Assembly (NCBI GenBank): GCA_963708135.1
Contig: OY970192.1
Location: 1,856,001-1,920,000 of the forward strand
Length of the DNA stretch: 64,000 bases
Source: an uncultured Gemmatimonadales bacterium
GTDB lineage: Bacteria > Gemmatimonadota > Gemmatimonadetes > Longimicrobiales > RSA9
Direction of reading: 5' to 3'
The notes under the pieces were generated by a model, which saw only the letters and a program-made list of their open reading frames with translations, did no database searches and was not told the origin of the DNA. This document shows, in pieces, positions 28,596 through 38,439 of this stretch; within the stretch, counting starts at the first letter, position 1; each line of letters begins with the position of its first letter. The position numbers and the translations under genes are program-made.

Positions 28596-30083
28596 TCAAC
28601 GCCAGCCGCGATGGCGCCAGCCGCCGGAGGAGGTGCCGCCGGCGGCGATTCGGCGCACGGCGCGGCGCTGGCGTTCGTCGTGCTCGAGCAGCGCGGCGGC
28701 GAGCGCGGCGGCGGCGAGGGTATCGTCGCCGGCGGCGCGTTTCTGGAGCTCCGGGTGCTTCTCGAGGTAGCGGATGTCGATCGCGCCGGCGCGGAAGTCC
28801 GGCTCTCGCATGACGCGGCGGTGGAACGGCGCGCTGGTCTCGACGCCGACGACGCGCAGCTCGGCGAGGGCGCGCTCCATGCGCGCGATGGCGCGTTCGC
28901 GGTCGGGCGCGTGCACGATGAGCTTGGCGAGCATCGGGTCGTAGAAGAGGGACACCTCGTATCCCTCGGCGATGCCGCCGTCCCAGCGCACGCCCGGCCC
29001 GCCCGGGGTGTTGAGCAGCTCGATGCGGCCGGTGGACGGCATGAACTGGTTGTCCGGGTCCTCGCTCGTGATGCGGCACTCGATGGCGTGTCCGGAAAGG
29101 CGGACCGCGTCCTGCCCGAAGGGCAGTGCCTCGCCGCCCGCGATGCGGAGCTGCCACTGCACGAGGTCCAGGCCGGTCACCAGCTCCGTGACCGGATGCT
29201 CGACCTGGATGCGGGTGTTCATCTCGAGGAAGTAGAAGGCGCCATCCTGGAAGAGGAACTCGATGGTGCCGGCGTTCTCATAGCCCACGGCGGCCGCCGC
29301 GGCCACGGCGGCCGCGCCCATCTCAGCGCGCAGCTCGCGTGTGAGCGCGGGGGAGGGCGCCTCCTCCACCATCTTCTGGTGCCTGCGCTGGATCGAGCAC
29401 TCGCGCTCCCCCAGGTGCAGGGTCGTGCCGTGGCGGTCGGCGAGTACCTGGATCTCGATGTGGCGCGGCCCATCGAGGTACTTCTCCACGTAGACGCTGC
29501 CGTCGCCGAAGGACTGCAGCGCCTCGTGCGCCGCCGACTCGAACGCGCGCGCCACCTCCTCCGGGCCCCGCACGACGCGCATCCCCTTGCCGCCCCCGCC
29601 GGCCGCCGCCTTCAGCAGCACGGGGAACCCGATCTCCGCCGCGGCGCTCGCCGCCTCCTTCGCATCGGCCAGCGCCCGCGCCGTCCCCGGGACCACCGGC
29701 ACACCCGCCGCCATCATGCGCCGGCGCGCCTCCGTCTTGTCGCCCATTGCCTCGATCGCCTCCGGCGACGGGCCCACGAAGGTGAGCCCGGCGTCGCGCA
29801 CCGCCGCGGCGAAGGGAGCGCGCTCGGCCAGGAAGCCGTAGCCGGGATGCACCGCGTCGCAGCCCGCGGCCAGCGCCACCTCGAGCAGCCGCTCGATCCG
29901 GAGATAGGAGCGCGCCGACGGCGCCGGGCCGATCGGGAACGCCTCGTCCGCCTCGAGCACGTGCGGCGCCACGCGGTCCGCGTCGGAATAGACGGCCACG
30001 GCCGTCATGCCCATCTCGCGGCAGGCGCGGATCACGCGCACGGCGATCTCGCCGCGGTTGGCGACGAGCACCTTGCGCAGCAT
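28596..30083 (-). CDS. accC: Biotin carboxylase subunit of an acyl-CoA carboxylase
   Basis: ANRGEIA, HPGYGFLAE, GGGGKGMR, ECSIQRRHQK, EMNTRIQVEH. Confidence 0.93.
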   Translation of the reverse strand: MLRKVLVANRGEIAVRVIRACREMGMTAVAVYSDADRVAPHVLEADEAFPIGPAPSARSYLRIERLLEVALAAGCDAVHPGYGFLAERAPFAAAVRDAGLTFVGPSPEAIEAMGDKTEARRRMMAAGVPVVPGTARALADAKEAASAAAEIGFPVLLKAAAGGGGKGMRVVRGPEEVARAFESAAHEALQSFGDGSVYVEKYLDGPRHIEIQVLADRHGTTLHLGERECSIQRRHQKMVEEAPSPALTRELRAEMGAAAVAAAAAVGYENAGTIEFLFQDGAFYFLEMNTRIQVEHPVTELVTGLDLVQWQLRIAGGEALPFGQDAVRLSGHAIECRITSEDPDNQFMPSTGRIELLNTPGGPGVRWDGGIAEGYEVSLFYDPMLAKLIVHAPDRERAIARMERALAELRVVGVETSAPFHRRVMREPDFRAGAIDIRYLEKHPELQKRAAGDDTLAAAALAAALLEHDERQRRAVRRIAAGGTSSGGWRHRGWR

Positions 30084-30868
30084 CAGTGGTCGCCGCCCAG
30101 AATCTCGCCGAGGATCGCGCCCGCGGCCGCGGCGCCGCCCAGCTTGCCGATCCCGCCGCGCGCCTCGTCCTTGCTCCCGAACCTGGCCGCCGCGATGATC
30201 CGGTCCGCCAGCCTCGAGAACGGCAGGCTCTGCAGGTACACGAGCCCCGGGCCGGTGAGCGTCGCCAGGAACAGCCCTTCCCCGCCGAACAGCGCGTTGC
30301 GGAACCCGCCCACGAAGTTGATGTCGTAATCCACGGACGGCGCGAACGCCACCAGGCACCCCGTGTCCACGCGCAGCACCTCGCCGGGCGCGAGCTGCCG
30401 CTCCATGATCGTGCCGCCCGCGTGCGCGAATGCCAGGCCGCTGCCCGTCAGGCGCTGGAGGATGAAGCCTTCACCGCCGAACAGCCCGGCGCCGAGCCGC
30501 TTCGTGAAGGCGACCTCGATCTCCACGCCGGACGCGGCGCACAGGAAGCTGTCCTTCTGACAGATGAACGACCCGCCCAGCCGGGCCAGGTCGAGCGGCA
30601 CGATCTTGCCCGGGTACGGCGCCGCGAACCCGACGTGCCCCTTGCCCGCGCCGTTCTGCTTGAAGGTCGTAATGAAGAAGCTCGAGCCGGTCAGCATCCG
30701 CTTGAACCCCTTGAACATGCCGCCGCCCGTGGACGTCTGCATCTCGATTCCCTGCTCCATGTAGAGCATGGCGCCCACCTCCGCGCGCACGCCCTCGCCG
30801 GGGTCGAGCTCGACCTCCACGACCTGCATTTCCTCGCCGATGATCTTGTAGTCGATGATGTCGGCCAT
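30083..30868 (-). CDS. TIGR00266/AIM24 family protein
   Basis: [43 protein letters not shown]. Confidence 0.92.
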
Positions 30869-30983
30869 GGCAGTGCTCACGTGTTGGAGAGGAGTCGGGG
30901 GATGAAATCCGCGCTCATTCGAGCCCGTCCGGTCAGAGGATCGCAAGGGTTCAGGCCCAGTCGGACGCAACGCGTTCGCGGTA

Positions 30984-31517
30984 TCAGCCGGACCCGACCG
31001 CGCGCTCGACGACGGTGATGTCGCGTTCCGACAGACCGTAGAGGCGGTACACGATGCGATCGATGAGCCTATCCGTCAGCTCGAGCTGGCGCAGCAGCGG
31101 TCGGAGTCTTCCCATGCTGACCTCGTATGCTTTCTCGACCCGTTCGCGCGCAGGATTCCTCGCTCTGTACCCCTTTGGCTTCGAGACGTCCAGGCGAGCG
31201 ACCCTCGGATGGTTGCGCCGGATGACCTCGAGCAGCTTCGTCGCGTCCGCCTGCTCATAATACGATTCCACATAGGTTTTCCCGCTCAGATCGTCCACCC
31301 GGCAGCCGATCTGCTCCTCGAGCCAAGCCAGGAAGGAGTGCACCTCTACCTGGCGCAGCTCATGCAGCTCCGTCATCCGGCGCGCCAGAAACGCCAGCAG
31401 GTCCCGCACGACGTCCGCGCGTTCGCGCTCGAGGTCGGGGCGGCCCTCCGCATCGAGCGGCAGAAGCCACTCGATCTGAGCGAGCAGGTCATCGAACGGG
31501 AACGCGACGTCGCTCAC
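30984..31517 (-). CDS. Stand-alone C-terminal helical domain of a type IIG R-M enzyme
   Basis: [14 protein letters not shown]...FLAWLE...DDLSGKT...[24 protein letters not shown] matches the typical type IIG C-terminus (IDxxVYxLYGLxxEEIxxVE). GTG overlaps the HEPN stop, with a GGAGG RBS. Confidence 0.8.
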
Positions 31518-31903
31518 CCCATCCTCCCCTCGACTCTTTCCACGACCTCGCGCGCAAGCCCCACGGCGCGGGTTGCTTCGTCCTCGCCGTACTCGACCCC
31601 TCCCGGGTAACGAGGCTCCACGGCATACGGGGTCAGCACCGACGCGGCCGGCTCCAGATCGGGCAAAGCCGTACCGGCGGCGCGCAGGCGGTCGAGCAGC
31701 ACCGAAAGGTCGTGCGTAGGCACCGCCGGCGCGCCGGTTTCGTGGACGACAAGCGCCTTCAGCGCCTTCTCCGCTGCCTGCTGCGCGTGATAGACGGCCA
31801 GCCACGGGTGGGCCGGCTCGGCTTCCGCCGCCGTCCCGGCCGCCCACAGGTCGTCCCGGGCGCGCTCGAGCCAGGCGCGCGCGGGCTGTTCAGCTTCCGT
31901 CAT
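31514..31903 (-). CDS. HEPN domain protein (MNT-associated type)
   Basis: WLERARDDL..A, YHAQQAAEKALKA, THDL, YAVEPRYP; 129 aa. Confidence 0.9.
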   Translation of the reverse strand: MTEAEQPARAWLERARDDLWAAGTAAEAEPAHPWLAVYHAQQAAEKALKALVVHETGAPAVPTHDLSVLLDRLRAAGTALPDLEPAASVLTPYAVEPRYPGGVEYGEDEATRAVGLAREVVERVEGRMG

Positions 31904-34900
31904 CCAGGCGCACTCCTTCCTCGAGCACGTGTCCCACGAAACTGCCGGGCACCGCCCGCCACCGCTCGATCTCCGCGGGCGTGTAGACGTGCAGGTCAAC
32001 CGGTCGCGGCGCGCCCGCAAGTCGCTCGCGGATCCGCTCCCGCCAGGCCGCCTTGCCGCCGTCCGGCTGCACCACCACCAGCAGGTCCAGATCGCTGTCC
32101 GGCCGCGGGTGGCCCCGCCCCCACGAGCCGATCAGTCGCACCTCCTCCACGCCCTTCAGCGCGCCGATCCGCGCACCGAGCTCGCGGATCTCTTCGGGGA
32201 CCTCCGGCTCGATGCCCGCCTTGCGCAGCCCGCGATAATACAGCCCCTCCAGCCACCGGCCGAGCTCCTGGCGGGTGCGCTCGGGGGTGCGCTCGGCGAC
32301 CTGCCTGATCGGCACGCGCTCCATGTACTGGGCGCGCAGCTCGATGTACGCATCCGAGCCAGCCGGTCCCTCCAGCCGAGCGGCCGCGTTCCGCAGATAG
32401 AAGAAGCAGAGACGGCTGTTCAGGAGCGCGAGCACCGATCCATCGTCCGTGGCGAGAACGAAGCACTTATCGTTGACGAAGCGGCCGCCCTTGTCGAGAC
32501 CGAACCGTGGCTCCCTCGTGATGATCGGATAAACGATCTTCGGCCGTTCGTAGATGTTCCGAAACGCTTTCTGCGGCTGCTGCAGCTCATACCAGGCCTG
32601 CTCCGTCGCGCGCCTCTCGAGCCGCTCCCGGAACGGCGCGAGGTGCGCTTCCACGGCCGGGTACCGGCGGATGTCCACCCCGTGCGGCAAGTACAGCAGC
32701 CAGCGGTCGGCGCTGCGGATGTGGTAATGCCGGACGTCGTCGCCAATGACCAGCGGCTTGATCACCTCGGCCGAGCGCGCGTCCTCCGCGATCAGGCGTT
32801 CACGGGTGGCTCGATCGATCCAGAACGCCTCATTCAGACCGGTCTTGATTCCCCAGCAGATCCCGCTTGGGAGCATCTTTCCGAGTGGCTCACCAAGCGC
32901 CGGCAGTCGCGCCAGGATCTCGGCCGTACGCCTGTCAACGAGCTGCCATTCCTCACCCGCGAGAGTCCCAGGATTCAACTCGAACGCGGCCTTCTCGACG
33001 GCGATTCGCAAGTCATCGAACTCGCCCAGCTCGGCGAAGCGGGCGGGCACGGCCGCGCCGCCCTTGCGGACGAAGACGAGCGCGGGCCGGACGGTAGCCT
33101 CGGGGAACACGCCCGATCCGGCGAAGTCCACGATCTCCCTGACCCGTCCGATTCGACCGATCAGCCCGCGCAGCTTCTTGCCGTAATTCGCGCGCAGGAA
33201 CTTGTTCGAGACGATCGCCCCGTACTCGCCGCCGTCGCGGAGCAGCTCGAGCGAGCGCTCGATGAAGTAGACGTACAGGTCGCTGCGGGTGGCGTAGGTC
33301 TCGTATTCCTGGCGGAGGAAGTCCTTGATCCCCTTGAACTCCTCCATACGCACGTAGGGCGGATTGCCCATCACCGCGTCGAAACCGGGACGCTCGAGCC
33401 GGTGTCCGGTCTCCGCGTCGTGGAAAGCCTCCCCGAACTCGACCTCCCAGTGGAAGAAGACGTGCTTCGCGCGGAGGCGCGCGAGCGCTTCGGCGTCCAC
33501 GATGGCCGAGGCCTCCCCCCACTGCTGCCGGTCCGATTTGAGGGCGCCGAGCAGCGCCGCATACCTGTCCTCGTCGATCGACAGGCCGAAGAACGTGGCG
33601 CACCAGACATCGCCCACGAAACGCGCGCGATCGAGGAGCCGGTCGGCTTCGGCCAGCAGTTTCTTCTTGAGCGCGACGTCGCGCAGCGAGTCGGTGGCCG
33701 TCGCCTCGATCTGGCGCGTCATGCCGACGGCCTGGCGGAGCGCGAGCGCGAGGGCGTCCCCGAAGGCGTTGTACTGGCCCGCTGCCTCGAGCCGGGCCGC
33801 CTTGCCCCTTGCCGGCGGTCGGCTCATCCGTTCGATGCGCCCGCCGAGCAGGGAGTCGCCGACCTTCAGGTGATGGTCCAGGAAGTTCAGCGGCTTGTTC
33901 TTCTCGACTGTCGCGAGCCAAAGCGACAGCTTCGCCAGCTCGACGGCGCGCGGGTTCCTGTCGACGCCGAAGATGCAGCGCTCGACCACCAGCCTTCCGA
34001 CGTGCTCCGGATCGAGGTGGGCGAGCTCGCCAAGTGATCCCTGGTCGTCCGCATCGACAGCCGCGACCGCGGCGCGCACGAGGTACGCCGTCGCGGCGAC
34101 GAGGAAGTGCCCGGAGCCCATCGCCGGGTCCAGTACGCGCACCGAGAGGATCTCGCCCGCGCGCCGGCGCTCGACGAGCGGTGCCAGCGTACGCTCGACA
34201 ATGTACTGGACGACGTAGTCGGGCGTGTAGTAGGAGCCGGTGACCTTGCGCTCGCCCTTGTCGTTGGCGAGGTAGACGTCGCCTTCCGGGACGGCGGTGC
34301 GGATCACGCGGCCCTTCTCCCGGATCTCCGGGAGCGTCGCGTCGGCGACGCGGAGGACATACTCGAGCAGGCCCTCGTAGACCGAGCCGAGGTGGCGCAC
34401 GTCGAGCGGGCCGTAGTCCACATAGTGGAGCGATCGCGTGTCCGGATCGGAGGCCCGAGAAAGCAGGTCGATCGCTTCGGCGAGCTGCGGGTCGGGAACG
34501 TAATGGTTCTCGAGCCAGGGATGCCGGTCCGGGTCGAACAGACCTCCGTCGTAGACGGGCAGACCGTCGAGTCTCCAATCCGGGTGCCCGTCGATGATCT
34601 GGAAGAGGTCCGCCAGATCGTTCCAGAAGTCGCGGCCGTGAGGGAAGCAAGTCTGCTCTTCGTCGCGTACGCGCTTTGCGCGCTCGCGTAGCTGCAGGAG
34701 GCTCTTGCTCCGGTAGGTCGGGTTGGTGCGCACGGGCAGGAGGTCGCGCGCTTCCGCGAAAAGCACGAACAGGAGTCTGAACAGCAGCGTGAGCGAGTTG
34801 TCGAGGATCGTGCGGCCCAGCGTCTCATCCCGCCGCAGCAACGCCGCATCCACGCCTGCGGACGCCGCGAAGCCCGCGCACAGCGCCGTGACCGCGCGGT

Positions 34901-35693
34901 AGGCACGCGGCTTGAGCTCCGCTTCGACGGCGCGCGCATAGCTCAGCGAATCGGCGCGCGCATTGTCCACCCAGCGCAGGCCGTGTTGATCCGGGCGGAA
35001 CGACGGCGGAGCGAAGAACAGGTAGAAGTAACGGAACGCCTCCTCCGCCCGGATGGTTGCGCCCTCCTCCGTGAGCGCCAGCGGCTCGTCCCCGAGCAGC
35101 GCGGCCAGATCCAGTGAGAAGTACGCCGTATCGGCGAAGTCCACGTCGCGATTGTAGAGGCGCCACTCGCGGCCGTTCGTCAGGATACCCCACGGCTGTT
35201 CCGCGCGGAAGAGGTAGTTGACGATCTGTGTGGACGGCACGCGGTTCGGCTCGAGATCGCCGGGCCCGCCGCGGGCGTCCAGGGGGCGGTCCCACCGCTT
35301 CGCTTCGAGCACGGCCAGAGCTTGCTTGAGCACCGAGCGGCGTTCTCGCCCGGCGGCGGCGCGGCGTGCATCCTCATCGGTTGCGAACAGCGCATAATCG
35401 GGGAACTGTGTCGCGCCCAGGCGCTGCGAGCGCGGTTGCACCTCGTACCCCCATCCAAGCGCCTGAAGCACCGGACGAAGCAGGTGCTCCTCCGTCTGCG
35501 CCTCATTCGCCGCGGTAAGGGTGTCGCCCTCGCGACGGTACACCTCGCGGACGCGCTCTCGCAGCGCGCGCGCGGCGCCGGCGCACTCATCCCACTGGCG
35601 GTCTCTCCGCAGGCGCGTCTCGAGGAAGTGGTTCGAGAAGAGCTGCCGATTGCCGTAGGCTGGTGCGAACTGGAGCTCAGCGTGATTGGTCAT
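31890..35693 (-). CDS. Type IIG restriction enzyme/N6-adenine methyltransferase (Eco57I-like) with a C-terminal fused minimal nucleotidyltransferase
   Basis: PD...EAK nuclease (FPDYALF...VLEAKRW), WGILTNGREWRLY, GSYYTP, VLDPAMGSGHFL, GNPPY, TaqI-C-like TRD (GIKTG, WYELQ, PKIVYP). The last ~100 aa are MNT-like: LIGSWGRGHPRPDSDLDLLVV...VDLHVYTPAE. Confidence 0.9.
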   Translation of the reverse strand: MTNHAELQFAPAYGNRQLFSNHFLETRLRRDRQWDECAGAARALRERVREVYRREGDTLTAANEAQTEEHLLRPVLQALGWGYEVQPRSQRLGATQFPDYALFATDEDARRAAAGRERRSVLKQALAVLEAKRWDRPLDARGGPGDLEPNRVPSTQIVNYLFRAEQPWGILTNGREWRLYNRDVDFADTAYFSLDLAALLGDEPLALTEEGATIRAEEAFRYFYLFFAPPSFRPDQHGLRWVDNARADSLSYARAVEAELKPRAYRAVTALCAGFAASAGVDAALLRRDETLGRTILDNSLTLLFRLLFVLFAEARDLLPVRTNPTYRSKSLLQLRERAKRVRDEEQTCFPHGRDFWNDLADLFQIIDGHPDWRLDGLPVYDGGLFDPDRHPWLENHYVPDPQLAEAIDLLSRASDPDTRSLHYVDYGPLDVRHLGSVYEGLLEYVLRVADATLPEIREKGRVIRTAVPEGDVYLANDKGERKVTGSYYTPDYVVQYIVERTLAPLVERRRAGEILSVRVLDPAMGSGHFLVAATAYLVRAAVAAVDADDQGSLGELAHLDPEHVGRLVVERCIFGVDRNPRAVELAKLSLWLATVEKNKPLNFLDHHLKVGDSLLGGRIERMSRPPARGKAARLEAAGQYNAFGDALALALRQAVGMTRQIEATATDSLRDVALKKKLLAEADRLLDRARFVGDVWCATFFGLSIDEDRYAALLGALKSDRQQWGEASAIVDAEALARLRAKHVFFHWEVEFGEAFHDAETGHRLERPGFDAVMGNPPYVRMEEFKGIKDFLRQEYETYATRSDLYVYFIERSLELLRDGGEYGAIVSNKFLRANYGKKLRGLIGRIGRVREIVDFAGSGVFPEATVRPALVFVRKGGAAVPARFAELGEFDDLRIAVEKAAFELNPGTLAGEEWQLVDRRTAEILARLPALGEPLGKMLPSGICWGIKTGLNEAFWIDRATRERLIAEDARSAEVIKPLVIGDDVRHYHIRSADRWLLYLPHGVDIRRYPAVEAHLAPFRERLERRATEQAWYELQQPQKAFRNIYERPKIVYPIITREPRFGLDKGGRFVNDKCFVLATDDGSVLALLNSRLCFFYLRNAAARLEGPAGSDAYIELRAQYMERVPIRQVAERTPERTRQELGRWLEGLYYRGLRKAGIEPEVPEEIRELGARIGALKGVEEVRLIGSWGRGHPRPDSDLDLLVVVQPDGGKAAWRERIRERLAGAPRPVDLHVYTPAEIERWRAVPGSFVGHVLEEGVRLDDGS

Positions 35694-35696
35694 CGG

Positions 35697-37244
35697 CTAC
35701 AACGGCATGTTCCCATGCTTCTTCCACGGGTTCTCGTCCCGCTTGCTCTGCAGCATGTCGAGCGCGTTGATCAGGCGGGGCCGGGTCTGGCGCGGGTCGA
35801 TGACATCATCGACGTAGCCGCGGCCGGCCGCGATGTAGGGGTTGGCGAAGCGCTCGCGGTACTCCCGCTCCCTCTCCCGGGTGGCGGCCTCGCGATCCTC
35901 CGCTTCCGCGATCTCCTTGTGGTACAGGATCTCGACCGCGCCCTTCGGCCCCATGACGGCGATCTCGGCGGTGGGCCAGGCCAGGTTGACGTCGCCACGG
36001 ATGTGCTTGGAGTTCATCACGTCGTACGCGCCGCCGTACGCCTTGCGCGTGATCACCGTGATGCGCGGCACCGTGGCCTCGCAGAAGGCGAAGAGAAGCT
36101 TGGCACCGTGCTTGATGATGCCGCCGTGCTCCTGCGCGACGCCCGGCAGGAATCCCGGCACGTCCTCGAAGACGACGAGCGGTATGTTGAAGGCGTCGCA
36201 GAAGCGGACGAAGCGGGCTCCCTTCAGCGAGCTGTTGATGTCCAGCACGCCCGCCAGCACGGCCGGCTGGTTCGCCACGATGCCCACCGCGTGCCCGCCC
36301 AGGTGGGCGAATCCCACGAGGATGTTGCCGGCGTACGCGGCGTGGACCTCGTAGAACTCGCCATCGTCCACCACCCGCCCGATCACGTCGTGCATGTCGT
36401 AGGGCCGGCTCGGCTCGTCCGGCACCACGTCGAGGAGCGCCTCGTCCGCGCGGTCGAAGGGGTCCGCTGTCTCGCGCCGGGGCGGGTCTTCCCGGTTGTT
36501 CTGCGGGATGAAGCGGAAGAGGCCCCGGATCGACTCCAGGCACTCGAGCTCGCTGTCGAACGCGAAGTGGGCGACACCGGACGTGCCCGCGTGAACGTCC
36601 GCGCCGCCGAGCCCCTCCATGTCGATGTCCTCGTGCGTGACCGTCTTCACCACGTTCGGGCCGGTCACGAACATGTAGCTGGTGCCGCGCACCATGTAGA
36701 TGAAGTCCGTGATGGCCGGGGAGTAGACCGCGCCGCCCGCGCACGGCCCGAGCACGGCGCTGATCTGCGGCACCACGCCCGAGGCGAGGGTGTTGCGGAG
36801 GAAGATGTCGGCGTAGCCGCCGAGCGAGACCACGCCCTCCTGGATGCGCGCGCCGCCCGAGTCGTTCAGGCCAATGAGCGGCGCTCCGATCTTCAGCGCC
36901 ATGTCCATGAGCTTCACGATCTTGGCCGCGTGCGCCTCCGAGAGCGAACCGCCGTACACCGTGAAATCCTGGCTGAACACGTAGACGAGTCGGGCGTGAA
37001 TGGTGCCGTAGCCGGCGACGACACCGTCGCCGAGGAACCGCTCGTCCTCCTCGCCCGCCGCGCCGCGGCCGACCGCGAAGCGGTCCAACTCCACGAAGCT
37101 GCCCTCGTCGAGCAGCAGGTCGAGCCGCTCGCGGGCGGACAGCTTGCCCCGCCGATGCTGCGCCGCGAGCCGCCTCTCGCCGCCGCCCCGCTCCGCGCGC
37201 TGGCGCAGCTCGTCCAGCTGCCGGAGCCGCTCCCGCATGTCCAT
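35697..37244 (-). CDS. pccB: Propionyl-CoA carboxylase beta (carboxyltransferase) subunit
   Basis: [46 protein letters not shown]. Confidence 0.93.
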
Positions 37245-37245
37245 G

Positions 37246-38439
37246 TCAGCGCCCCTTCCCCGCATCCCCCGATGTGGTGTCCGCCTGCTCCAGCGTCACG
37301 AGCTTGCCGCCCTCGATGCGGACGATGAACGGCCGGCGCACCACGGCGCCGTCCCGCAGCGAGAGAATGCCCGTCGCCCCTTCGAGGTCCCGCTCCCGGC
37401 CGAGGCGCCGCGCCACTTCGCGCGCGCCGCCGCCACCCTCGAGCGCCTGGAGCACCATGCGTGTGGCGTCGAAGCCGAGCGCCGGGAACGGGTTGTCCAG
37501 CGACTTCCGGTACGCCGCTTCATACAACGAGACGAACCGGCTCCACGCCACGCGCGGACTCGAGCGCTGGAGCGGCGTGGCGGCGATCACGCCGTCGGTG
37601 TTCTCGGCCGGGAGCACGCGCAGCAGCTCGTCGCTCGTCCACGCCTCGCCGCCGAGGATCTGCAGCCCCTTGCCGGTGACGCCGTAATAGGCGAGCTGCG
37701 GCGCGATCTGGCGCACGTCGCGCTCCGGCGCGGGGATGAACAGCGCCTGCGCGCCCGACGCGAGCGCGCGCCGCAGCGGACGGGCGAAGGTCGTGGTGCC
37801 GGAGTCGTAGGGCAGGTCCACGACCACCCGGCCTCCGGCGCGCGCCAGCGCCAGCTCGAAGACCCGGGCCGTCCGCTGGAAGTCGGCGGAGCGCGGATAC
37901 AGCATGGCCACCCGCGGCCACCCGTGGCGCGCGGCATAGGCGGCGAGCGCCGCCGCGCCCCGCGTGTCCCCCGCGTTCAGCGAGTAGACGTTGGGCAGCC
38001 CATCGGGAACCGTCGAGGCGGTGGGGCTCACCAGCGCCAGCATGGAATCCGTCCGGGCGCGTCCCGCGGCCGTCAGGCCCGGGCTGAGCAGCGGGCCGAG
38101 CACGGCCACCGCGCCCCGCCGCTCCAACTCCTTCACCAACGCCGCGTCGCGCTCCGCATCGCCGGCATCGTCCAGCAGCACCAGATCTGGCACGAGGCCC
38201 CGCGGCGCCTCGTGCGAGAGCGCCAGACGGATCCCCTCCAGCACCAGGTCACCGTACTGCGTCAGGTACGGCGAGCCCGTGCGCGGCAGGATCGCGCCGA
38301 GCACCGGCCTCGCCGCCGCCTCCGGCGGCCGGCGCGCCGGCGGCTTTGCCGACGGAGTCCCCGACGGGCCGCTCCGCGCGCACGCGGCGACGAGCCCGAG
38401 GAGCCCTCCCAGCAGGAGGGCACGCGTCCGGATTTGCAC
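37246..38439 (-). CDS. Lipoprotein with a periplasmic-binding fold (LpoA C-domain / ABC substrate-binding-like)
   Basis: Lipobox [40 protein letters not shown]. Confidence 0.75.

Follow-up and report, generated by a model that had tools for sequence, protein, structure and literature searches.

An MNT-HEPN gene pair at a domain boundary of a putatively two-chain type IIG restriction-modification enzyme in an uncultured Gemmatimonadales bacterium

The window analysed here, 64,000 nucleotides of an uncultured Gemmatimonadales bacterium (assembly GCA_963708135.1, contig OY970192.1, positions 1,856,001 to 1,920,000; positions below count from the first base of this stretch), contains a restriction-modification (R-M) module of three overlapping genes on its minus strand (Table 1). 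The first encodes a type IIG enzyme body that runs in frame into a minimal nucleotidyltransferase (MNT) domain, the second a small HEPN protein, and the third, open reading frame 3 (ORF3), a protein that on sequence comparison is the detached C-terminal domain (C-domain) of the enzyme. This anatomy is certain. A first-pass annotation, made from the letters alone, had described three coupled genes in the module (30984-35693); its coordinates prove correct to the base, and the motifs, the 14-nt and GTGA overlaps and the GGAGG ribosome-binding site that it reported are all present.

The enzyme body consists, in order, of a PD..EAK nuclease (P98-D99...E130-A-K132), a helical spacer, a gamma-class N6-adenine methyltransferase (MTase; DPAMGSG at residues 522-528 and NPPY at 777-780), a TaqI_C-type target recognition domain (TRD) and a tail helix. 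Pfam recognises Eco57I (PF07669) at residues 573-863 (E 1.6e-35), N6_Mtase, and TaqI_C at 980-1129, and the PADLOC model REase_MTase_IIG matches at E 3e-54. One polypeptide therefore carries the nuclease, the N6-adenine MTase motifs I and IV and the TRD that define the class; the single complete chain of Eco57I-family type IIG enzymes is not found, since the C-domain is a 177-aa ORF of its own. The best PADLOC match of the protein is DrmMI (E 3.5e-110), and a DISARM assignment was rejected because this match spans only MTase residues 458-832 and the neighbouring genes encode a carboxyl transferase, AIM24 and a biotin carboxylase, not drmA, drmB, drmC or drmD.

Beyond the tail helix the frame continues into the MNT domain, where NTP_transf_2 (PF01909) matches residues 1179-1244 with 28.4 bits (cut-off 21) and the motifs GSWGRG (1189-1194) and DSDLD (1199-1203) are found. 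The HEPN gene starts at an ATG (31903) ahead of the enzyme's TGA (31892-31890), which gives the 14-nt overlap, and a Shine-Dalgarno-like GGAAGGAG for it is located within the coding end of MNT; the GTG start of ORF3 (31517-31515) in turn overlaps the HEPN stop codon (TGA, 31516-31514) as GTGA. A PF05168 HEPN beside a PF01909 MNT, with the MNT 5', is the arrangement of an HEPN-T/MNT module. The G+C content by codon position is high, low and very high in all four segments (body, MNT, HEPN and C-domain), and because this pattern is joined by recurrence of the layout in two other genomes (G099 and G018, below), the three-gene arrangement is beyond chance. Misassembly, which the first-pass annotation had named as a risk, is answered in part: the same layout stands in three independent assemblies, and short-read Logan contigs from one DNA run show 0 differences to the window and bridge the HEPN/ORF3 junction; these contigs end 4 nt past the HEPN start, so the MNT/HEPN junction is not formally bridged, and the run may be the window's own source.

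An exhaustive phmmer search of 1.84 billion representatives with ORF3 as query matched 968 proteins at E<=1e-3; among the 150 matches listed, 32 are at least 1000 aa long, the match ends at most 29 residues from the C-terminus in every one of these 32, and all 12 long matches scanned are Eco57I-type. In the unsplit enzyme P0016, ORF3 residues 8-174 align to residues 1114-1271 (41% identity over 167 residues, within the last 160 aa of that protein), and residues 1087-1144 of the window's enzyme align to 1048-1101. A whole-protein search found closer unsplit relatives (P0176, P0177, P0180, P0181 and P0182; 56-58% identity, or about 57%) in which body and C-domain are contiguous. These alignments, which had been set beforehand as a check, identify ORF3 with the helical C-terminal domain that unsplit type IIG enzymes carry, as the first-pass annotation proposed. 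They place the MNT-HEPN pair in the linker that joins this domain to the TRD, in agreement with its further suggestion that the pair had landed within the R-M gene. ORF3 itself has no Pfam or NCBIfam match, and a sequence search of the PDB gave nothing at E<=1. Its AlphaFold2 model (predicted local distance difference test, pLDDT, 93.8) is a long antiparallel helical hairpin (helices 34-70 and 122-159) on a small helical base; Foldseek found nothing for this model in the PDB at E<=1e-3, and a wide VIA-align search returned generic coiled-coil hairpins only (best Z 7.9), with no R-M enzyme among 50 rows; these searches assign ORF3 to no known fold. A word-indexed search with residues 1120-1267 of the window's enzyme (P0001) recovered only the query itself, which reflects the sensitivity limit of the tool and not rarity.

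Binding of ORF3 to the enzyme body is supported by a predicted complex. Three runs with body residues 460-1165 and ORF3 gave ipSAE values of 0.81, 0.80 and 0.81, and the best control reached 0.14; 116 of 157 solved complexes attained the ipSAE mark, as did 2 of 215 mismatched pairs. At least 94% of contacts are common to the three runs, and the partner pLDDT is at least 86. The predicted interface joins the TRD (922-1101) and the tail (1130-1163) to ORF3 residues 5-60 and 140-175, so that in the model the base of the hairpin and the C-terminal helix of ORF3 rest on the TRD and tail helix, and the tip of the hairpin is free.

The first-pass annotation had suggested looking for the same order of genes elsewhere, and it recurs. 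Among the 61 relatives searched, a full-length homologue of the IIG enzyme is found only in G018 and G007 (61% identity in both), and in a 401-genome sample of the phylum a full-length ORF3 match is found only in G000, the window's own genome, and in G099, which belongs to another family. G018 (proteins 52-67% identical to those of the window) and G099 (44-57%) have the MNT-fused IIG enzyme, HEPN and C-domain in the same order, G099 with a 14-nt overlap identical to that of the window and a 4-nt ATGA overlap at the C-domain; the metagenome contig L118 is a near-copy of the G018 locus. Two other relatives have reduced forms. G007 has neither MNT nor HEPN, and its C-domain is a separate gene GTGA-coupled to the IIG stop codon after a GGAG-rich stretch; no evidence points to a programmed frameshift that would connect its body and C-domain. 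L027, a metagenome-assembled genome that its record title places in the Gemmatimonadaceae, keeps the MNT-fused enzyme (tail 52% identical over 139 aa), and its HEPN gene has shrunk to a 22-codon ORF that preserves the old start position and the ATGA overlap with the C-domain start.

Between genomes the proteins are 57-66% identical in the body, 40-53% in MNT, 40-52% in HEPN and 47-67% in the C-domain, and the corresponding omega values by the Nei-Gojobori method (NG86), rough at a dS near saturation, are 0.25-0.32, 0.56-0.58, 0.41-0.61 and 0.21-0.52. All parts appear from these estimates to be under purifying selection, which agrees with the earlier judgement that the locus is maintained and not debris. 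The contrary explanation, that the insertion killed the restriction enzyme and left at most a methyltransferase and ORFs held open by high G+C, has in its favour that long spurious ORFs are common in this genome (69 ORFs of at least 60 aa within 13 kb of a window that is ~70% G+C), that archaeal relatives (L032, L039, L052, L057, L064 and L094) are broken into pieces and that transposases are present in L041. It is nevertheless very improbable, since the nuclease and MTase motifs are intact in all four clade genomes, omega is well below 1 for body and C-domain, all forms seen have a C-domain, either coupled or re-fused, L027 kept the coupling to the C-domain start even though HEPN was deleted, and the complex model supports C-domain binding.

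The order of events was approached with a FastTree tree of the enzyme bodies, rooted with unsplit outgroups. MNT-fused proteins are found in every major branch of the clade. The five unsplit members cited above group together (support 1.0); the sister of this group is P0167 with P0170, both MNT-bearing (1.0), and the G007 protein joins next (0.96); a sixth unsplit form, P0183, has a different and larger in-frame deletion and is sister to the MNT-bearing P0171 and P0173 (1.0). Well-supported pairs of a tree built from MNT alone agree with the body tree. The most economical reading of these relationships is a single cassette insertion at the base of the clade followed by losses, which would comprise loss of HEPN alone in L027, of the whole cassette in G007 (with two genes left) and, twice, of the cassette with re-fusion. 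The repeated loss of the cassette from lineages that retain the R-M enzyme and C-domain argues that it is accessory to R-M and that HEPN is the part lost first. In place of the window's MNT, HEPN and new start codon, P0016 has about 12 residues and the P0176 group has 45-60. Descent of this 45-60-aa linker, in the re-fused members, from the N-terminus of MNT is no more than a hint: the best BLASTP match (28% over 54 aa) has E 5.6e-4 with a very small search space, and most pairs fall short of significance.

Four clade HEPNs share E45-K46..K49, H64 (in THDL), R98-Y-P and Y105, and none of the four has the Rx4-6H motif; R98 is kept with no His 4-6 residues behind it. The nearest solved structure is 1ufb (TT1696, E 1.4e-5). 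The HEPN protein matched 0 PADLOC families at E<=1e-3; P0001 matched 77, and PDC-M05 is not among the best 25 of those 77. The MNT motif GSxxRG..DxD is intact in all 15 listed MNT-fused proteins of the clade. The first-pass annotation had compared the pair with HepT/MntA, and there is a likeness to such type VII toxin-antitoxin (TA) systems (Shewanella SO_3165/3166; the Aphanizomenon HEPN-MNT pair) in that an MNT with an intact motif is followed by a HEPN with a conserved Tyr behind its R motif. By family, however, the assignment fails for the window HEPN, which is PF05168 and not PF01934/DUF86 and lacks Rx4-6H. The window MNT is not a free protein, and the NCBIfam MntA model (NF047752) gives it 19.5 bits against a cut-off of 60. 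A shared origin with an archaeal MNT-HEPN pair at the same junction (L090) is not supported, as BLASTP gives no match for its HEPN and the MNT domains are 21% identical.

The HEPN-T row of Table 1 in Anantharaman et al. (2013, PMC3710099) lists 'D replaces conserved H', an alternative upstream His and clustering with R-M operons, and their passages on HEPN-T propose an alternative active site formed from the upstream His and suggest the C-terminal Tyr as a target of the MNT. The same source links 16 HEPN clades to R-M, states that HEPN domains joined to MNT often lack the RNase residues and were 'domesticated' as substrate-binding domains, and reports that HEPN proteins lacking the motif were still toxic in a genome-wide screen. 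One possibility is that MNT and HEPN together form a two-part nucleotidyltransferase like kanamycin nucleotidyltransferase (KNTase), in which a HEPN serves as the substrate-binding half; it would modify or regulate the R-M enzyme, the C-domain subunit or a phage target and involve no toxin. Consistent with this are the 'domesticated' HEPN domains, the PF05168 class of a HEPN without Rx4-6H, the fusion in other loci of Fic, also an AMP transferase, at the same site, and the E45-K..K49 residues conserved in the four clade HEPNs, which may resemble the Glu/Lys pair of KNTase. Such an enzyme seems improbable here: HEPN has a gene of its own and is not part of the MNT chain; L027 has dropped HEPN and retained MNT, as is usual when a toxin and its antitoxin decay but odd for the halves of a single enzyme; and the toxicity of motif-less HEPN proteins in the screen reported in PMC3710099 also speaks against it.

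We favour a different picture, in which an MNT-HEPN cassette interrupted an Eco57I-family IIG gene exactly at the linker between the TRD and the helical-hairpin domain. The body now ends in MNT, and the genes for HEPN and the detached C-domain come after it in translational coupling; every catalytic motif is intact, and the arrangement is passed on within one clade. The 177-aa C-domain would re-associate with the TRD and leave the R-M enzyme functional as a two-chain protein. HEPN would do the harm and MNT would neutralise it, perhaps through nucleotidylation of Tyr105; the pair would be a TA-like or candidate defence module, and its tether to and co-expression with the R-M enzyme would be a by-product of its landing place. 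We regard this reading, a working two-chain type IIG enzyme carrying an embedded, largely autonomous MNT-HEPN module whose activities are predicted, as about an even bet. Several points weigh against it. At ~70% GC open frames count for little; the alignments behind the complex model included unsplit relatives, from which intra-chain contacts may have been learned; and dS is 0.75-1.5, which makes the omega values rough, while even on those values MNT and HEPN are visibly less constrained than the body. The deep FastTree nodes are weak (0.48 and 0.67), and the positions of G007 and G099 are not resolved by the quick tree. With neither a canonical Rx4-6H nor a PADLOC model match, HEPN may not be an RNase toxin at all. 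Finally, the in-frame MNT fusion is kept in all 15 listed clade proteins that reach that far, and together with independent fusions of Fic this could mean that the tether itself is selected.

This last point favours the proposal made in the first-pass annotation that the system is guarded. On such a model, which follows the logic of PrrC/EcoprrI, the MNT antitoxin is purposely tethered to the enzyme; HEPN would be let loose once the enzyme is inhibited, degraded or lost, as a phage anti-restriction protein might bring about, and the outcome would be abortive infection or post-segregational killing. The MNT fusion with its intact motif in the 15 listed proteins, the tight translational coupling conserved in G000, G018 and G099, and the independent fusion of Fic, another AMP-transferring enzyme, at the same junction in Nitrospirota (L091, L099 and L103) are what a guard would predict, and guardians of R-M systems are an established concept, with PrrC and PARIS as examples in a review (PMC12707154), to which the R-M-linked HEPN clades counted in PMC3710099 may be added. 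No sensor logic can be read from the sequence, however, and the cassette was lost at least three times with the R-M enzyme kept; many unrelated TA families, which act by sequestration and not by tethering, occur at the same junction, and in L078, L073 and L090 the enzyme is unsplit and intact, with the cassette behind it. These losses, unrelated families and unsplit-enzyme cassettes point to a landing site rather than a designed coupling, and the guarded system is accordingly judged unlikely, though less so than a two-part nucleotidyltransferase.

The wider survey of the junction makes the same landing-site argument more general. Hidden Markov models of the C-domain and of the TRD end were run over 79 loci from genome contigs, of which 56 are fused, 6 split and 17 without a TRD end on the locus, and over 80 from metagenome contigs (51 fused, 1 split, 28 without a TRD end); where the TRD end is missing, the contig is in many cases short. 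Pfam scans of neighbouring ORFs covered 118 of 118, 121 of 143 and 70 of 91 of those listed, the omitted ones being duplicates, ORFs already scanned, large IIG genes or nested frames. A TA- or defence-type Pfam family adjoins a non-fused C-domain copy in 25 of the 79 genome loci and 14 of the 80 metagenome loci (Table 1). The junction thus looks like a recurrent landing site for cassettes in many bacteria and archaea, and the window's module is, on this comparison, one member of a general habit of cassettes lodging there and not a unique case. An independent parallel to the MNT fusion is that of Fic/DOC, which is joined in frame to the IIG body at this junction, the C-domain being encoded by an overlapping ORF of its own. 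In two of the loci where Fic stands beside a C-domain copy, L188 and L193, the Fic gene is split over two frames. A recurring two-gene cassette, a dCTP-deaminase-like protein of 233-245 aa with a 147-aa protein that has no Pfam family, lies between C-domain copies at four loci. Larger guests beside C-domain copies are an SMC/AAA_21-like ATPase of 1039 aa, an HD dGTPase-like gene with a DDE transposase next to it, and a 337-aa protein with a weak TIR-like match (Table 1). Many small ORFs without a Pfam family also occupy cassette positions (L031, L033, L035, L052, L084, L137 and L151); by position they are candidates for new TA or defence genes.

Table 1. Features of the window and of loci that carry the C-domain of the enzyme
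Feature	Location	Strand	Basis or remarks
Type IIG enzyme fused in frame to MNT	31890-35693	-	1267 aa, Eco57I-type
IIG enzyme body, aa 1-1162, WLEGLYYRGLRKAG at tail helix	32208..35693	-	Pfam, PADLOC, motifs
TaqI_C-type TRD, aa 980-1129	nt 32307-32756	-	Pfam
MNT domain, aa 1163-1267, in frame with body	31893..32207	-	PF01909
HEPN gene, 129 aa, PF05168 'HEPN-T' type	31514..31903	-	Pfam E 9.2e-22
ORF3, 177 aa, detached C-terminal domain of IIG enzyme	30984..31517	-	Alignment to C-termini, models
GGAGG ribosome-binding site, 5 nt upstream of ORF3 GTG	31523..31527	-	
MNT+HepT (PF01934) beside C-domain copy	L056, L078		
MNT+HEPN beside C-domain copy	L090, L118		
HicAB beside C-domain copy	L067, L073, L085, L121		
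AF2212+PIN or DUF433+PIN beside C-domain copy	L040, L047, L048, L058, L061		
MazF beside C-domain copy	L033, L046, L056, L058		
ParE beside C-domain copy	L038, L050, L052, L063		
DUF4258/DUF2283 beside C-domain copy	L046, L056, L101, L138, L142, L158		
Fic fused in frame to IIG body	L091:2218-6468, L099:2158-6465, L103:3-2483		Nitrospirota records
Fic beside C-domain copy	L060, L128, L130, L136, L156, L171, L188, L193		
dCTP-deaminase-like beside C-domain copy	L036, L040, L045, L063		
dCTP-deaminase-like two-gene cassette	L036:8115-9259, L040:9009-10153, L045:1765-2909, L063:2587-3768		
HD dGTPase-like gene beside DDE transposase	L143:1358-3999		
SMC/AAA_21-like ATPase, 1039 aa	L153:6505-9624		
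337-aa protein, weak TIR-like match	L069:5271-6678		
C-domain-unit arrays	L056:6400-11150; L078:4960-7090; L046:4700-11850; L063 whole locus; L033:2880-6970		

Sixteen of the 56 fused genome loci, mostly from Methanotrichaceae, have extra C-domain copies or 3' fragments downstream in direct orientation, and the enzymes of L078 and L073 retain a C-domain of their own, which the cassette separates from a second copy. The Methanotrichaceae repeat unit comprises an 'RRISFSTPE' junction motif, the C-domain, a GC-rich hairpin (CGCCGCCCGGCGC..GCGCCGGGCGG) that closes each unit of an array, and then GGAGG; copies are 82-91% identical in DNA. In Methanotrichaceae/Methanosarcinales, arrays of 2-11 direct copies of this unit or its 3' fragments follow the IIG gene, with TA or defence cassettes between them. 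Recombination within the conserved junction motif and the C-domain sequence is the probable means by which cassettes move. A bolder proposal makes the TRD/C-domain junction a dedicated capture site, at which cassettes are gained, stacked, swapped and lost by recombination in the manner of integrons or orphan modules, the junction motif, C-domain and GC-rich hairpin at the 3' end of the restriction enzyme gene perhaps forming the repeat unit for capture, and at which a fused AMP-transferring enzyme (MNT or Fic) tethers a toxin that reads the state of the R-M enzyme, as in the guarded system above; this combination is also a long shot, about on a par with that system itself. The arrays recall those of orphan C-terminal modules in Rhs/CDI polymorphic toxin loci: downstream copies of a 3' module stand in direct orientation, separated by small cassettes. 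They differ in what is repeated, here a structural R-M enzyme domain instead of a toxin tip, and in that the cassettes are complete TA pairs or defence genes and not immunity genes.

The embedding of defence genes in multi-gene systems and the existence of R-M-linked HEPN proteins are already known. Payne, Hughes, Fineran and Jackson (2024, bioRxiv 10.1101/2024.01.29.577857) describe defence genes embedded inside multi-gene immune systems (Hma, BREX, DISARM and type I R-M), the guests lying between genes, and an NTase+HEPN pair is among their candidates as PDC-M05, according to its description in PMC12988326. The loci reported here resemble theirs in that small TA-like or defence cassettes are nested in a restriction-type system, with dCTP-deaminase, PIN and ATPase cassettes in both sets; they differ in that the host is a single gene, the guest sits at a domain boundary, the enzyme has become two chains and the first guest gene is fused in frame. 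The terms 'type IIG' and 'split' are absent from the text of that paper, whose supplementary Tables S3-8 may list related cassettes. A literature search that left subscription journals outside its scope found no report of TA cassettes inside type IIG genes or of Methanothrix arrays, nor of the in-frame fusions, healing by re-fusion or C-domain repeat arrays.

Two further systems are useful for comparison. PrrC, an anticodon nuclease encoded in the EcoprrI type Ic R-M locus, is likewise a HEPN protein encoded within an R-M unit, and in the model outlined in PMC3710099 and PMC12707154 it is a second line of defence released when restriction is blocked. Unlike PrrC, the window's 129-aa HEPN has no ABC-ATPase domain and is not a canonical HEPN; its host is type IIG and not a type I hsd system, and what restrains PrrC is the type I complex, with no MNT involved. 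The unsplit Eco57I IIG enzymes (P0016; P0176 at 58%) share with the window the nuclease, MTase, TaqI_C TRD and a helical C-domain ending in LIDxIVYxLYGLT, and differ in being one polypeptide.

Searches for new immune systems have already exploited embedding, though only where guests lie between genes of a multi-gene system; the junction described here offers a rule for mining candidate defence genes, which would be sought between the 'PIRRI..TP' motif and a C-domain copy. The apparent tolerance of a type IIG enzyme for splitting at this boundary would be useful for engineering, and the intact, HEPN-deleted, cassette-free two-gene and re-fused forms make a natural series for the question of guard versus passenger. 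The Methanotrichaceae arrays may reveal an undescribed mechanism of cassette exchange.

The chromosomal position of the module is shared as well. It lies directly behind the carboxyl transferase gene in all four genomes (window, G018, G007 and G099), and in the window it is flanked on the same strand by carboxyl transferase (35697-37265), AIM24 (30083-30970) and biotin carboxylase genes. Four genomes from two families (window 30083-37265; L024, L025 and L026) have the 4.7-kb R-M module inside an acyl-CoA carboxylase cluster, where it separates the carboxyl transferase gene from that for biotin carboxylase, on the same strand and 3 nt past the upstream stop codon. Of 10 relatives that lack the module, 9 (8 of 9 without the unpublished G015) have biotin carboxylase directly after carboxyl transferase, and the tenth has AIM24 between them. 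The shared site could reflect vertical inheritance from long ago, with many losses since, or else transfer of the module through recombination in its conserved flanks. Elsewhere in G000 there are three weak matches to the MTase/TRD parts of the IIG enzyme, at C1:4094968-4095597, 4978282-4978641 and 3765187-3765555, in frames of 1224, 570 and 548 aa; these are probably other R-M or MTase genes.

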